NCBI GenBank assembly: GCA_965242545.1
Contig: OZ251456.1
Location: 2,947,093-3,011,092, forward strand
From: a bacterium
Lineage (GTDB): Bacteria > UBA8248
DNA length: 64,000 nt
Direction: 5' to 3'
Shown here piece by piece: positions 1,349 through 6,475 of the stretch (position 1 is its first letter; the number at the start of each line of letters is the position of its first letter). Position numbers and translations under genes: made by a program. Under the pieces are notes generated by a model, which worked only from the letters and a program-made list of their open reading frames with translations, had not been told where the DNA came from and made no database searches.

Positions 1349-1435
1349 GGAGGAGACCGATCGGGCCGGAATCTTCCGCGCCGATCGGCGCCGCGCGCGA
1401 AAGAAAAGGGGATTATCAAGATAATTTGACGCCGC

Positions 1436-2269
1436 TCAGTCGAGCATAGGCCTGAGCCGCTGGCGCAAGTCGGCCTCGAACTCGCCTCGCTGGACGGTGT
1501 GAGCGGCCAGCAACTTGTCCGTCGAGGCTTCCAACGTGAGCACTTCCCAGTGACCCTGCACCATCCGATGGTCGTGGATCTCGGGCACCAACCAGAGCAC
1601 GTCTCCGTCGTTCGGGTCATGACTTGGACGCGGAGAAGGGCCTCCGATGGCATCGAAAAACGGACGATCCACCGCTACAGCGATCTTGGACCCCCACCGG
1701 CGCAACGTCGGCCCTTTGACCTGCAACTGCGGCATGAGACGCTTGGCGCTGGACGATCGCCAATCGGGACGGCGGAGACGCGACGGATACGGCGAATCAG
1801 GACTCTTCCGCAGCCGCTCGAACTCAACGCTCATACTCGGTCCGGAGAAGTACACCGCCTGCACCTCCAGACCGAACCACATCGCCGCGTCTTCCGTGTG
1901 GGCCAGCACGATGTCGATGCGCCCCGCCGCCTTATTCGTGATCCGGTTCATCATGAACGGGACTTCTCGGGCCACATAGGCGGTCTCATGCTGAAATCCT
2001 ACGATATCCGCGAGCCAGCGCAGGAGCTGCCCGTCCTCGTCGAAGCGAGCCGGACAGACGATCACCGGTTCGCCCGCTGGTTCGCCGGACTCCTCGTACC
2101 TTTGGAGGCTGCATACTCCGCCCTGCTTGCTGCATTGCATCCCCGCGAAGGGACACGCCGGGGCGTTTCCTCGCGTCGACAGGGCAGTCGCGGCCCGGCG
2201 GCGGCGCTCGTCAGGCGAGAGCGCCAGCAGGGGCCTGCCGTACCACTCGCCGATCCCGTATCGACTCAT
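1436..2269 (-). CDS. Type II restriction endonuclease, NotI family (putative)
   Basis: Cys4 cluster pattern CPF..C...GVC...VCP.RF followed by a 'GRIDIVLA ... GLEVQAVYFSG' block, matching the NotI metal-binding/PD-(D/E)xK layout as I remember it. Start overlaps the stop of the upstream methyltransferase by 4 bp (ATGA). Confidence 0.5.
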   Translation of the reverse strand: MSRYGIGEWYGRPLLALSPDERRRRAATALSTRGNAPACPFAGMQCSKQGGVCSLQRYEESGEPAGEPVIVCPARFDEDGQLLRWLADIVGFQHETAYVAREVPFMMNRITNKAAGRIDIVLAHTEDAAMWFGLEVQAVYFSGPSMSVEFERLRKSPDSPYPSRLRRPDWRSSSAKRLMPQLQVKGPTLRRWGSKIAVAVDRPFFDAIGGPSPRPSHDPNDGDVLWLVPEIHDHRMVQGHWEVLTLEASTDKLLAAHTVQRGEFEADLRQRLRPMLD

Positions 2270-3204
2270 GCGAATGTCTGTTGCCTCGTGATCACCAACT
2301 CGGGAACCTTCGCGTGGTGCCCGTTCTTCATGGCTACGATCACCGCGTGGAAGCGATGCTTCTCCAGCAACGCGATGACTTCCGGGGAACAGTCGTAGGT
2401 CATGAGAAATTCGACCTTGGTGTCCGCCATTAGCTCGAACAGCCGAACATGATCAAGGTCGTTATGGGCATACAGGCGCGCGCCCGCGCGTTTCCCGCCA
2501 TCGGTCGTATACGGCGGGTCAAGAAAGAAGCAGGCATGGTCATGGTGACCCGCCGCGCTCTCCAAGTACGCCAGTCCGTCTCCCTCGAAGAACGAGATGC
2601 GGTCCTGATGGTCCCCGATGAGCCGGAGACGCTTGCAGAGCGTCTCGGGATACCACCGCGATCCTATTCCCGCCCCGTTCTCGCCGCTCCTCGTCAGAGA
2701 CGCCCCAGGGGCCAGAATGCCGCCTCGCCTGGTCCGGTTGAGCACCAACGTTCGGAATCCGTGGCTCACCACGTCGTTCGGGGCTTGGCTCTCCAAGGCC
2801 CGCACGGTCTCCCGGGTCGGCTCGAAGTCCGCGATCCGGTCGATAAGCTCCTGGGTGTGCTGCAGAGCCGCGCGCCAGAACGCAGCGACGTCACGATCCA
2901 TATCCACCATGAGCGCGCGCGCAACGAACTGTTCCACGACAGCGAGCAGCGACACGACGGCTCCGCCGGCGAAGGGTTCGATGATGACCTCTCGGGGTCC
3001 GAGATTCTTGAGCCAGACGCGGATGTGGGGGATCAGCCAAGTCTTGCCGCCCGGATACCGGAGCGGGCTCAGCTGGGGGACGGAAGCGACATTAACGGCG
3101 GGAATGGGGGATTCGGGAAGTATGGTTCGGAGAGGTCGCAAGAGGGCGCGGGCCATCTTCTCGGGGGTTGCGCTGTCGTAGAACCCATCGGGGAGCGTCT
3201 GCAT
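2266..3204 (-). CDS. Dam-family (D12 class) N6-adenine DNA methyltransferase
   Basis: Motif I 'LRYPGGKTWL' (FxGxG-like, Dam 'AGGK' type) and motif IV 'DPPY' (FFLDPPYTTDGG). Strong AGGAGG ribosome-binding site directly upstream of the ATG at 3204. Confidence 0.85.
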   Translation of the reverse strand: MQTLPDGFYDSATPEKMARALLRPLRTILPESPIPAVNVASVPQLSPLRYPGGKTWLIPHIRVWLKNLGPREVIIEPFAGGAVVSLLAVVEQFVARALMVDMDRDVAAFWRAALQHTQELIDRIADFEPTRETVRALESQAPNDVVSHGFRTLVLNRTRRGGILAPGASLTRSGENGAGIGSRWYPETLCKRLRLIGDHQDRISFFEGDGLAYLESAAGHHDHACFFLDPPYTTDGGKRAGARLYAHNDLDHVRLFELMADTKVEFLMTYDCSPEVIALLEKHRFHAVIVAMKNGHHAKVPELVITRQQTFA

Positions 3205-3207
3205 GGC

Positions 3208-3465
3208 TCAGTCCTCCTGATGTGCGCCCGAAGGGAGTCCGTCATCGGCGATGAGCCCTCGGCGCATGAGGCGCTTCCCGATGAGCCCGGCTACGGCATG
3301 TCGCATGATATTCAGCGCGCCCTCCTCTCTCAGGTTGCGCTTCGCGGCGAATTGCCGGACATGCCGATCAAGATGCTTCGGGCTCGTCTTGTGGCAGGCG
3401 CCGGCATACGCCCGCTTGAGCGCGGCACGGAAGCTCTCGACGCCATTCGTGCACGCATTGCAACT
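3208..3465 (-). mobile_element. IS1595-family transposase, C-terminal fragment (remnant, no start codon)
   Basis: Minus-strand frame reads '...ACTNGVESFRAALKRAYAGACHKTSPKHLDRHVRQFAAKRNLREE...HQED*'. This matches the conserved IS1595/ISXO2 C-terminal block 'HTNTIEGFWSLLKRGIVGTYHHVSPKHLQRYLDEFAFRYN'. The frame is open upstream only to 3552, has no Met, and runs into osmC in another frame. The stop TGA is 3 nt before the methyltransferase ATG. Confidence 0.5.
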
Positions 3466-3497: not shown

Positions 3498-3968
3498 CTA
3501 TTCGTTGATGTGCCAGACGTCCTTCATGGCGCAGCCGCTCGCGCTGAACAGGTTATAGACGGGACATCTGCGGAAATAGTCCGCCTTGAGCGCCTCGATC
3601 TGCTCGTCGCTCGCCTCGATCTCGAGCCAGATTTCGCTGCGGGCCTCGCTCGGATTCGAGCGGTATCCCTCCTGGCCCGCGATGCCCCTGGGGCTGTAGA
3701 CGATGGAGGACTTCACCTTGAGGGAGCCTATCTCGAGCTTCGCCTCCTTCGCGCACCTCTCCAGAATCACCGCCGTGCAGCCCGCGAGCGACGTCACGAG
3801 ATAGCCCGTGGGCGAGGGGCCCTCGTCCGAGCCGCCCAGCCGCCTGGGTTCGTCCACCACCATCGTATGCCCGCCCTTGATGGTGACGACGCTCTTTGCG
3901 TGGCCCTTGAAGTCGGCCTCCGCCCAGTTCTCGGTGGTCTCCGGCAGCTCCTTCGGTCGAATCGTCAT
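3498..3968 (-). CDS. osmC: OsmC/Ohr-family peroxiredoxin-like protein
   Basis: OsmC core 'GPSPTGYLVTSLAGCTAVIL' and C-terminal Cys region. Start chosen at the internal ATG ('MTIRPKEL', 3966-3968), which gives ~155 aa typical of the family. The track ORF extends to 4175 with a non-homologous N-terminus. Confidence 0.75.
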   Translation of the reverse strand: MTIRPKELPETTENWAEADFKGHAKSVVTIKGGHTMVVDEPRRLGGSDEGPSPTGYLVTSLAGCTAVILERCAKEAKLEIGSLKVKSSIVYSPRGIAGQEGYRSNPSEARSEIWLEIEASDEQIEALKADYFRRCPVYNLFSASGCAMKDVWHINE

Positions 3969-4086
3969 CCCGGCTCCCTCTCCCTGACTCGCGCCCGAAT
4001 CTCCCCCGGCGACCCACGCCGGCATCGTCTTTTTGTAAAAGAGGATCATATCCCAAATCACCCCGGCGTTCCCGGGAAATATCGGG

Positions 4087-5493
4087 TTATTTCTCCTGGT
4101 TGCTTTCCCGTGCGGTGCGGCCCTTTTCGTGAACAGGTGAACGCTCGGCGACATCCGGCGCGTCTCTTCGGTCAATGCGACGCTTGTTCAACAGCTGGGT
4201 CTGAACCACCCATTCAGAAACACGGAAACGCTTTGCTGTTTCATGCCGTTTTTCATCCGAGGAATAATCCTCAGCCATCATCTCATCCACGGAGGCAAAC
4301 GGACTCAGAAGTTCCGCGGCGAACGCGCGCTGCATCTTCTGCCGATAGCTGTAGGCGCGCGTAACGGGGAAAAGCGGCTCGCCGGATTGAACGAGCTGAT
4401 TCTGAAATACAAGATCGCCGATCAGGCGAGCAAGATCGAAACGCCGGCCCGTTTCCATTTTCGAGCTGAGATACACAAGCGCGCGCGCGTCCTCTCCGGC
4501 GAGGGCGAAAGATATTTTAGGCGACTGCCCGTTTTTCTCCGAAATCGCGTCTCGCATACTTCCGGCGAATTCCACAAGTTGCTTGTCGGAAATTAACTGT
4601 CCATCCAGGTTTTCCTGGTCGCGGATTCTTTTTGCGCAAAACTCTCCCACGCGCCAAGCTTCTTCTCGCCCCAGTTGCGGCATTCCCGTCACGTCGCCCA
4701 GCTTGATCGCGTCATCTGGATTGGCCTCGAAACCCTCCCGCTTGGCGATGTCCGAGATGTCGCTCGCCCGCATCATGCCGTCCAAGGCATCGGTGTCAAG
4801 CGTTGCGTCGGCGGCGAGTTCTCCCAGTGCCTTTTCTCCCAATTTCGCCGCATCGTCGAGACGACGGCGAATCGCGGCCTCGTCGGCTTCGCCCGGCTCG
4901 TAGCCGAGCTGCGCTTCCAGCCGCCGAAACCGGGCGATGTCCGGTTTGCTTCTCTCCTCTTTCAGATCGCTCCACAGGCGATGGAGATTGGTTTCCCGGA
5001 CGTCCTTCGCTTCAAGCCTGCTCAGGATATCTTTCAGGAATCCGTCGAAGGCGGCCTCCGGGCTGTCCGCCGGAACCGCCTGGCGCTTTGCTCCCATGTA
5101 ACGGAACAGAGCCGTTTCGGGACTCCCGGAAGGTTCGGAAGTCAAGAAGGATTGCAACCCGTCAGAGTAAATGGTGACGTTGGGCCATGCGTAGCCCTCG
5201 CCGATTGCCGACATCCGATGCGCGAAATCCCAACGACTCACGGCGTTTTCGTCGGTCGAACGGGGGCGGCCAACCTCCCAGCGAAGCCGCCACCAGTTCC
5301 AGGCGATCCATTCGGCGATGGGGTAGCCGGAAACATGCGGCCCATAGCGGAGTTCCTTCCGCTCGATATCCTCGCCCGCAGTCAGTGGGTGTCCGTTCGC
5401 CGCCACCGAGAAAAGGCCGAACGTCGCCCGCTCTTCAGCCGACCCGGAAGCGAGGCGTTCGGAGGAGAGTGAAATGGTCAGCTCGCCGGACAT
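4087..5493 (-). CDS. Hypothetical protein, 468 aa, with a C-terminal helix-turn-helix-like segment (downstream gene of a two-gene module)
   Basis: Long ORF with no family I can recognise. The C-terminal 'DEKRHETAKRFRVSEWVVQTQLLNKRRI' looks like a DNA-binding helix-turn-helix. The ATG at 5493 is preceded by AAGGAG and lies 12 nt after the stop of the upstream 156-aa gene. The track starts at GTG 5505. Confidence 0.55.
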   Translation of the reverse strand: MSGELTISLSSERLASGSAEERATFGLFSVAANGHPLTAGEDIERKELRYGPHVSGYPIAEWIAWNWWRLRWEVGRPRSTDENAVSRWDFAHRMSAIGEGYAWPNVTIYSDGLQSFLTSEPSGSPETALFRYMGAKRQAVPADSPEAAFDGFLKDILSRLEAKDVRETNLHRLWSDLKEERSKPDIARFRRLEAQLGYEPGEADEAAIRRRLDDAAKLGEKALGELAADATLDTDALDGMMRASDISDIAKREGFEANPDDAIKLGDVTGMPQLGREEAWRVGEFCAKRIRDQENLDGQLISDKQLVEFAGSMRDAISEKNGQSPKISFALAGEDARALVYLSSKMETGRRFDLARLIGDLVFQNQLVQSGEPLFPVTRAYSYRQKMQRAFAAELLSPFASVDEMMAEDYSSDEKRHETAKRFRVSEWVVQTQLLNKRRIDRRDAPDVAERSPVHEKGRTARESNQEK

Positions 5494-5945
5494 CTCGAAC
5501 TCCACTCCTTGAGAATCATTTCTTTCATGGGATCATCATCGCCAAGTTCATATCCATGATAATCTCCTTCCCTCCCATGTATTGCCTCATATACGCGCCC
5601 ATCCGGGTCCACCGCCCAGACGTGTTTGGGAAACTCCCTCGTAAGGCGGCCGCTGATCATACCTCGCCTTATGCCCTCCCGAAAGAGAGCCTTCGCTTCG
5701 GCGCGCTCCACTATCCTGCCGCCATCGCATAATGATTTGTTCGGGCGCGGATTCGCCGGCGGGTGAAAGCCATAGTCGGCGGCGTTCCGTTTGTGGAGAG
5801 AGCTGCCCGTATATTTCGCCCTGCTTGCGTATCGCTCCAGAACATCCGGGGCAACCTCGTCTTTTGGGATGATTCTGCGCTTGGGGTTGTTGCCTTGGCG
5901 CTTTCGCATTGACTGGCTTTCCTGCCAACCGATCGCCGGTTTCAT
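5478..5945 (-). CDS. Hypothetical small protein (143-156 aa), upstream gene of the two-gene module
   Basis: Real part of track ORF 5478..6341, whose N-terminal 130 aa is an alternate frame of bcp. Two candidate starts: ATG 5945, or ATG 5909 (MRKRQGNN) with a better AGGAAAG ribosome-binding site. No Walker motif and no fold I recognise. Confidence 0.45.
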   Translation of the reverse strand: MKPAIGWQESQSMRKRQGNNPKRRIIPKDEVAPDVLERYASRAKYTGSSLHKRNAADYGFHPPANPRPNKSLCDGGRIVERAEAKALFREGIRRGMISGRLTREFPKHVWAVDPDGRVYEAIHGREGDYHGYELGDDDPMKEMILKEWSSRCPAS

Positions 5946-6016
5946 GGCGTCGGCCGATAAAAGCGACTTGCAGGAGTCGTTTTGGAACCCCGCGAACACC
6001 CGCGGCGGGGCGGCGG

Positions 6017-6475
6017 CTAGAGCGCTTTCAGCACGTCCTTCGCGTGTCCGTCCACCTTCACGTTCCTGAAAACCTTTTCGACGACGCCCTTCTCGTCGAT
6101 GATGTAGGTGGTGCGGAAGATGCCGTTGAACTTTCTGCCGAACAGCGTTTTTTCGCCATACGCCCCGTATTTCGATGAAATGACGCCGTCCGGATCCGCC
6201 AGCAGGGTGAACTCCAGGCTCAGCTTCTCCGAAAATTTCTTGTGGCTGACCTCGTTGTCGGGGCTCACGCCGATGACGGTGGCGTTTTTCCGCTCCATCT
6301 TCCGCAGCTCCCTGTTGAAGTCCTGCGCCTCGGTCGTGCATCCGGGCGTGTTGTCCTTGGGGTAGAAGTAGAGGACGACCTTCCGGCCCTTGTATCCCGA
6401 AAGGCGGCGCACCTTGCCGTTCGCGTCCCGGAGGGCGAAGGCGGGCGCCCGGGCTCCCTCTTTCAGCAACGCCAT
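6017..6475 (-). CDS. bcp: Thiol peroxidase Bcp (peroxiredoxin Q)
   Basis: 'KVVLYFYPKDNTPGCTTEAQDF' peroxidatic Cys motif. Start set at 'MALLKEGARAPAF' (6473-6475). Confidence 0.85.
   Translation of the reverse strand: MALLKEGARAPAFALRDANGKVRRLSGYKGRKVVLYFYPKDNTPGCTTEAQDFNRELRKMERKNATVIGVSPDNEVSHKKFSEKLSLEFTLLADPDGVISSKYGAYGEKTLFGRKFNGIFRTTYIIDEKGVVEKVFRNVKVDGHAKDVLKAL

Follow-up and report, generated by a model that had tools for sequence, protein, structure and literature searches.

The subject of this analysis is a two-gene element at positions 1436-3204 of a window of 64,000 nucleotides (nt) of bacterial DNA (contig OZ251456.1, GTDB lineage UBA8248), the window being the whole stretch that was analysed. 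Both genes lie on the minus strand and code, in this order, for a DNA methyltransferase (M) of the Pfam D12 family and for a protein with the features of a restriction endonuclease (R), which combines a region of four conserved cysteines (Cys4) with a predicted PD-(D/E)xK core (Table 1). A first-pass annotation, made from the letters of the sequence, had described two genes overlapping by ATGA, and this was confirmed, the two open reading frames (ORFs) sharing positions 2266-2269. The element is best read, with a probability of about 85%, as a self-contained, conventional Type IIP restriction-modification (RM) cassette.

The two genes and their predicted products

The nuclease matched the Pfam model PF12183, named NotI, with an E-value of 2.5e-40 and a score of 138.8 bits, against a gathering cut-off of 22, over 216 of the 238 model positions. 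Its relatives numbered 1970 in a collection of 5.8 billion proteins, with the top 120 all 56-68% identical and about 285 amino acids (aa) long, and the wider family comprised 721 clusters at 50% identity when matches with E up to 1e-3 were admitted. Searching one genome for each GTDB species yielded 456 relatives, from which the best 80 loci were kept; these, together with the window, make up the 81 loci and 81 nucleases referred to below. The signature CPF..C..GVC..VCP, already picked out in the first-pass annotation, is present, and each of its cysteines is kept in at least 80 of the 81 nucleases (C39, C46 and C72 in all of them, C53 in 80/81). The predicted catalytic residues D119, E135 and Q137 were likewise invariant in 81/81 sequences, and E102 was found in 80/81. 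The PD-(D/E)xK fold that had been proposed for the 277-aa protein was recovered on structural prediction, the AlphaFold2 (AF2) model (predicted local distance difference test, pLDDT, 85.7) presenting an alpha-beta-beta-beta-alpha-beta topology with the PD-(D/E)xK strand order. In this model E102, D119, E135 and Q137 fall on the strands 97-107, 114-124 and 130-137, the strand of D119 being adjacent to that of E135-x-Q137.

The proposed relationship with NotI itself was upheld by the comparison of profiles. A widened nuclease profile, built from the window clade and five distant plasmid homologs, was aligned by hhalign to the true NotI clade with a probability of 95.8% (E 7.9e-9, 143 columns), placing C39/C46/C53/C72 onto NotI C42/C55/C65/C81 and D119/E135/Q137 onto D160/E182/Q184; with the narrow clade profile the Cys4 domain alone was aligned (88% probability, E 3e-6). 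The NotI reference sequence was checked against PDB 3BVQ and found to be identical over 383 residues. NotI binds Fe in its Cys4 motif and carries a Q where the lysine of PD-(D/E)xK would stand (PMC4081073, a review), and a bound metal would likewise be expected in the window protein. Judged from these alignments, the nuclease is a compact, remote but genuine NotI homolog over its N-terminal ~150 residues. The ‘NotI family’ label is to be read with a caveat, as true NotI was not matched by PF12183 at E 0.01, and none of the 1383 homologs of NotI had a Pfam hit. Furthermore, NotI in the PDB was not found by phmmer or by the window-clade profile, even at E 10, and 3BVQ was not among the 50 matches listed by Foldseek for the nuclease model. 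In its own genome, NotI bears the NCBI label ‘hypothetical protein’.

The methyltransferase matched PF02086 (MethyltransfD12) with an E-value of 9.7e-12 and 45.6 bits, against a gathering cut-off of 22, the alignment being limited to the N-terminal 75 model positions. Both Pfam matches lie well outside what chance would produce. The motifs RYPGGK and DPPY, on which the earlier assignment to the D12 class relied, are present, and a comparison of 77 homologs shows them to be conserved. The invariant residues are R, Y, G, G and K in RYPGGK, P77, F78, G80 and G81 in EPFAGG, and D229, P231 and Y232 in DPPY; P230 is kept in 76/77. One copy (locus L080, ~5156-5998) was found with DAPY, not DPPY, as motif IV. 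Motif I precedes motif IV, which is the alpha-class order. The further reading of the enzyme as a Dam-class N6-adenine methyltransferase was not supported, given that the TIGR00571 dam model scored 36.8 bits, below its curated cut-off of 114.85, and that the best solved relative, M.CbeI, is an N4-cytosine enzyme; on these scores, the methyltransferase is not a Dam ortholog. M.CbeI (7M6B) was the sole PDB relative at E < 0.1 in a single-sequence search (5e-11), and with a 28-sequence family profile it was matched over its full length at 2.8e-15, while E. coli Dam and DpnM were matched by the same profile at ~5e-5, over the N-terminal ~110 residues alone. Among the PADLOC models, PD-Lambda-5_B was the best match (5.3e-47, full length), MTase_II also matched (2.7e-30), and the orphan-methyltransferase models matched weakly (9e-11).

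Linkage, distribution and exchange of methyltransferases

In 78 of the 80 loci the nuclease gene is directly preceded, on its own strand, by a homolog of the window methyltransferase (55-65% identity); the remaining two carry a different methyltransferase. The two genes overlapped by 4 bp in 51 of the 78 linked loci, as they do through ATGA in the window, and by 8 bp in 8 more, so that the first-pass call of an RM pair is borne out by the linkage. All-vs-all ORF clustering in the 81 loci revealed no further family shared by more than 12 of them and no integrase, transposase or controller (C) protein, and the genes flanking the cassette in the window (cupin, OsmC-like and a 472-aa ORF) did not recur at other loci of the 80. 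Since no other family is conserved and the flanking genes do not recur, it is the two genes alone that move. No flanking repeats were found at the cassette.

The 80 closest loci are spread patchily over more than ten bacterial phyla and one archaeon. They come from Dehalococcoidia and other Chloroflexota, Alpha- and Gammaproteobacteria, Acidobacteriota, Rhodothermales, Bacteroidota, Synechococcus, Binatia, Entotheonella, Gemmatimonadota, Latescibacterota and Thermodesulfobacteriota. The archaeal copy (L071, 5108-6888), on the 2.2-Mb chromosome OZ242365.1 of a member of the Nitrosopumilaceae, is a complete bacterial-type cassette with the ATGA overlap, and its nuclease shares 63.7% identity with that of a gammaproteobacterial copy (L069). 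The nuclease tree interleaves phyla, and the GC content of the cassette, which tracks that of the host (r = 0.73), averages 4.9 points below the flanks; the mixed-phyla tree and the lower cassette GC fit repeated horizontal transfer of the cassette between phyla. No match to the nuclease was obtained in phage records, and IMG/VR returned distant relatives alone (31-41% identity), the sponge-type clade being absent from both. Many of the record names (Entotheonella, SB06xx, RHO and IRC bins) point to sponge metagenomes, which we take to be the source of these records from their names, and the SB06xx series also contains sponge-type Poribacteria. RM systems have been described as enriched in sponge symbionts, archaea included (PMC7848895).

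The two loci with a different methyltransferase (L037, 4053-6855, and L041, 4012-6861) belong to metagenome-assembled genomes (MAGs) of Gemmatimonadota, and in both of them Vsr and a C5-cytosine methyltransferase replace the alpha-class enzyme. Their nucleases lie inside the clade, with 68-70% identity to Synechococcus copies. The two loci are syntenic, with a symporter upstream and a QueF-like gene downstream. A similar exchange was observed on plasmids, where two nucleases with 82% identity have different partners: Vsr and a C5 methyltransferase for that of Paraburkholderia pBN5, an alpha-class enzyme for that of pEST4011. Of 13 distant loci, located on plasmids or viral contigs, five have an alpha-class partner and eight a C5 methyltransferase; seven of these eight are 48-58% identical to the L037 enzyme over the full length, the other being 34% identical, and 4/8 are also accompanied by Vsr. 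Conservation is higher among these C5 methyltransferases than among the nucleases encoded beside them (31-39% identity to the window nuclease), which suggests one recognition sequence for the whole nuclease family. Because near-identical nucleases pair with either an alpha-class or a C5 methyltransferase, it follows from the pairing that the site must include a cytosine and that methylation of this base at C5 gives protection as well. When the alternative C5 methyltransferase was compared with solved structures for its specificity, the best match was DNMT1, and M.HaeIII matched the catalytic domain alone, so that the comparison yielded no lead to the site.

The features of the locus are collected in Table 1. 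The imperfect hairpin beyond the nuclease gene lies between the converging nuclease and cupin genes and is not followed by a T-tract. Upstream of the cassette, an OsmC-like ORF (3498-4175, minus strand) matched NCBIfam NF041052, ‘OsmC-related (seleno)protein’, at 6.5e-18 and 65 bits against a cut-off of 95; the match is confined to residues 86-210, so that the TTG start given in the ORF list probably lies too far upstream. The stretch 4087-6341 (minus strand) holds the 472-aa ORF (4087..5505) and an overlapping upstream ORF (~5478..5948), neither of which had a match in Pfam, NCBIfam, PADLOC or PHROGs. The C-terminal end of the 472-aa protein bears a FAAELLSP-like motif that is, by eye, reminiscent of ImmA/IrrE proteins. 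GC content is 0.585 at 4000-6300 and 0.664 in the remainder of the window, and the stretch 4087-6341 may be a second acquired module beside the RM cassette. No tRNA or Rfam match was found within the window.

Table 1. Features of the cassette and its immediate surroundings, in positions of the 64,000-nt window.
Feature	Position	Strand	Description and basis
Methyltransferase gene	2266..3204	-	312 aa; alpha-class exocyclic-amino DNA methyltransferase, Pfam D12 family; ORF list
Putative restriction endonuclease gene	1436..2269	-	277 aa; predicted Cys4 metal-binding domain and PD-(D/E)xK core with D...ExQ; ORF list
ATGA overlap	2266..2269	-	Methyltransferase stop TGA and nuclease start ATG; read in sequence (...TTCGC ATGA GTCGA...)
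RYPGGK motif	3043..3060	-	Methyltransferase aa 49-54; read in sequence, homolog alignment
EPFAGG, SAM-binding motif I	2962..2979	-	Methyltransferase aa 76-81; read in sequence, homolog alignment
DPPY, catalytic motif IV	2509..2520	-	Methyltransferase aa 229-232; read in sequence, homolog alignment
Cys4 region	2054..2155	-	Nuclease C39, C46, C53, C72 (CPF...C...GVC...VCPxR); conservation, alignment with NotI
Predicted catalytic residues	1859..1966	-	Nuclease E102, D119, E135, Q137; conservation, AF2 model, NotI alignment
AGGAGG Shine-Dalgarno sequence	3213..3218	-	8 nt 5' of methyltransferase ATG; read in sequence
Weak sigma-70-like promoter match	3305..3333	-	~100 nt 5' of methyltransferase gene; 9/12 positions; consensus match alone
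Imperfect hairpin, possible terminator (weak)	1357..1388		~50 nt past nuclease stop; inverted repeat, 15-nt arms, 87% complementary

Mechanism, modified base and competing explanations

As an RM cassette, the element would be expected to work in the conventional manner. The methyltransferase would methylate a single base within a short recognition site of the host DNA, probably a palindrome, with the region between EPFAGG and DPPY as the putative target-recognition region, and the nuclease, presumably a homodimer by analogy with NotI, would cut that site where it lacks methylation, for instance on phage or plasmid DNA entering the cell. Methylation of the host sites would block the Cys4-containing PD-(D/E)xK nuclease. 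Because of the ATGA start/stop overlap, translation of the nuclease would be coupled to that of the methyltransferase, and nuclease synthesis would thus follow it.

Four results weigh against this interpretation. Palindrome avoidance, evaluated in ~1.05 Mb of pooled host DNA (the 80 loci and the window), gave no single site and no 8-mer that was outstanding. PADLOC-DB 2.0 contains no model matching the 277-aa nuclease, and in the literature on PF12183 or the ‘NotI family restriction endonuclease’ only a 2012 survey of PD-(D/E)xK proteins names PF12183, with no biochemistry found for any member. Finally, at two loci (L024, 5117-5599, 160 aa; L049, 5097-5927, 276 aa) the methyltransferase ORF looks shortened beside an intact nuclease gene, possibly through a frameshift or an assembly error or because the system is decaying; if the system is active, such a shortening would be lethal, save where the sequence is in error or the cell is protected by a further methyltransferase.

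The shortened ORFs, together with the weak match to the PADLOC orphan-methyltransferase models (9e-11) and the lack of a controller gene, would suit an orphan regulatory methyltransferase lying beside an unrelated or decayed nuclease-like gene without restriction activity. This explanation is very improbable, as the nuclease is full-length and its catalytic and Cys4 residues are retained across the 81 copies, linkage and overlap are conserved across phyla, and wherever the methyltransferase has been replaced it was always succeeded by another, as expected of an active nuclease. Hardly more credit is due to the notion of an unusual marriage between a NotI-fold nuclease and a Dam-class N6-adenine methyltransferase, set against a C5 partner for canonical NotI, which remains very unlikely even though the Pfam families are named NotI and D12 N6-adenine and a C5 partner is present in a minority of the nuclease family members. 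The alpha-class partner is that of the majority (78/80 loci) and is already annotated on RefSeq plasmids, the TIGR00571 score (36.8 bits vs 114.85) argues against a Dam-class enzyme, and true NotI does not adjoin a C5 enzyme: in two Nocardia otitidiscaviarum genomes (L081/L082, 4012-4959 and 5001-6152) a PF01555 N6_N4 methyltransferase lies directly upstream of NotI, which overturns the first-pass statement that canonical NotI has a C5 partner. The least probable of these explanations is a compact ‘RM plus abortive infection’ system of the PD-lambda-5 type in place of a classical Type II system. PD-Lambda-5_B was indeed the best PADLOC match, at full length, and PD-lambda-5 has been described as a compacted system of RM and abortive infection (RM+Abi) (PMC9519451); the nuclease, having no PADLOC match, is not PD-Lambda-5_A, there is no third conserved gene, and no close relative was found in phage records or viral contigs.

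Within the RM interpretation, the base that is modified is a matter of balance, N6-adenine being somewhat favoured and N4-cytosine a serious contender. M.CbeI, which bears DPPY and had been assigned to the D12 N6-adenine enzymes, was experimentally found to be an N4-cytosine methyltransferase at GGCC (PMC8616854, PMC3425538); DmtB of Anabaena, also DPPY-bearing and annotated as D12 N6-adenine, makes N4-methylcytosine (m4C) at GGCC as well (PMC3425538, PMC8616854). DPPY therefore does not decide the modified base, as M.CbeI has it and makes m4C. NCBI still labels M.CbeI ‘DNA adenine methylase’ despite its experimental N4-cytosine activity. If CbeI had been a PF12183 member the site would have been fixed as GGCC; this was ruled out, as in the Caldicellulosiruptor bescii locus (CP001393; L097, 2974-4840) the partner nuclease of M.CbeI belongs to PF09556 (RE_HaeIII).

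A variant of the RM interpretation in which the methyltransferase makes m4C at a G+C-only site, possibly related to that of NotI or EagI with a GGCC core, is a plausible if not the favoured one, and under it the ‘DNA adenine methylase’ label would be wrong for the whole subfamily. It is consistent with M.CbeI being the closest solved relative, Dam and DpnM matching far more weakly, and with both M.CbeI and DmtB bearing DPPY and yet producing m4C. The NotI site contains no adenine, so the PF01555 partner of NotI must by inference make m4C, and the repeated swaps with a C5 methyltransferase and Vsr beside near-identical nucleases point in the same direction. In the pooled host DNA, GGCC was below expectation in 79/81 loci and CGGCCG in 74/81, with observed-to-expected ratios (O/E) of 0.81 and 0.72, respectively. 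These ratios were obtained without control genomes, and the avoidance is unspecific, CGATCG (0.60) and CTCGAG (0.54) being equally low; GCGGCCGC was not avoided (O/E 0.86), which says little on whether the nuclease recognises GCGGCCGC. Further points against the m4C variant are that M.CbeI is only 26% identical to the window methyltransferase and has a PF09556 nuclease, and that exchange of N6-methyladenine (m6A) and C5-methylcytosine (m5C) partners is also known elsewhere, for example at GATC, so that the swaps need not involve m4C. The D12 enzymes that have been characterised are mostly N6-adenine enzymes; Mrr restricts m6A and m5C DNA, and the need for an mrr-deleted cloning host is more typical of m6A. 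PD-Lambda-5_B, a PADLOC model that matches much more closely than M.CbeI, comes from a system whose cloning required a host deleted for the mrr region (PMC9519451).

A bolder extension, on which little weight should be placed, is that all the ‘DNA adenine methylases’ partnering PF12183 nucleases would be alpha-class N4-cytosine enzymes acting on one conserved G+C-rich site, so that the near-identical cassette might give its carriers, from more than ten phyla and an archaeon, a shared methylation mark. If this were true, the mark would lower the restriction barriers to gene exchange within the (apparently sponge) community and exclude outside DNA.

The cassette is one more putative Type II system in a family already named by annotation pipelines, mildly notable for its spread over many phyla and for a methylase that may mark cytosine rather than adenine. 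It also illustrates how labels mislead, with the Pfam name ‘NotI’ missing NotI and ‘D12 N6-adenine’ giving no reliable guide to the modified base, and how such systems are under-counted: surveys with PADLOC 2.0 would miss it or report no more than a methyltransferase, orphan or Type II, or else an incomplete PD-Lambda-5. Additionally, the cassette cleanly marks recent transfer between phyla and between domains in apparently sponge-associated communities, and HiFi datasets of such communities could reveal its methylation motif without cloning.

Comparison with known systems

The pairing of families was compared with systems already on record. R.NotI (PDB 3BVQ/3C25) shares with the window nuclease the N-terminal Cys4 domain and the PD-(D/E)xK core with Q for K, and the two systems also share the operon order, M then R, and a partner that is an amino-methyltransferase. 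They differ in size, with 277 aa for the window nuclease and 383 aa for NotI, ~150 residues being alignable at 19% identity, and in the family of the partner, M.NotI belonging to PF01555 and the window methyltransferase to the alpha-class PF02086.

The methyltransferase resembles M.CbeI (7M6B) and DmtB in its alpha-class motif order, in LRYPGGK and in DPPY, and M.CbeI aligns with it over the full length; at 26% identity, and with a PF09556 RE_HaeIII partner (CbeI) beside M.CbeI, a carry-over of base and site is not implied. With E. coli Dam, DpnM and T4 Dam it shares the Pfam D12 family and the alpha-class architecture, and it is set apart from E. coli Dam by the TIGR00571 score and by a profile match (E 5e-5) restricted to the N-terminal ~110 residues. 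The likeness to PD-lambda-5 (Vassallo et al. 2022) concerns the methyltransferase component B (5.3e-47), whereas the nuclease or effector is unrelated and without a PADLOC match, and PD-lambda-5 is a prophage-borne RM+Abi system (PMC9519451).

The closest precedents are RefSeq plasmid pairs labelled ‘NotI family restriction endonuclease’ and ‘DNA adenine methylase’, from Aeromonas veronii (NZ_CP121823), Achromobacter pEST4011 (NC_005793) and Thermus brockianus (NZ_AP025595). The Aeromonas plasmid is 4 kb in size, and pEST4011 is an IncP-1 plasmid. Their nucleases are 35-38% and their methyltransferases 43-45% identical to those of the window, and M.CbeI is the sole PDB match of the Aeromonas methyltransferase as well. 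They differ in being plasmid-borne, in the order R then M and in an overlap found in the Thermus pair alone, whereas the window copy is a member of a distinct clade that is found on MAG chromosomes and is tightly conserved (55-67% identity). The suggestion made in the first-pass annotation that such a combination would be less common was not sustained, as an alpha-class enzyme is the usual partner (78/80 close and 5/13 distant loci); the same pair of families is already labelled in public plasmid records, and the pairing is the norm for this nuclease family.

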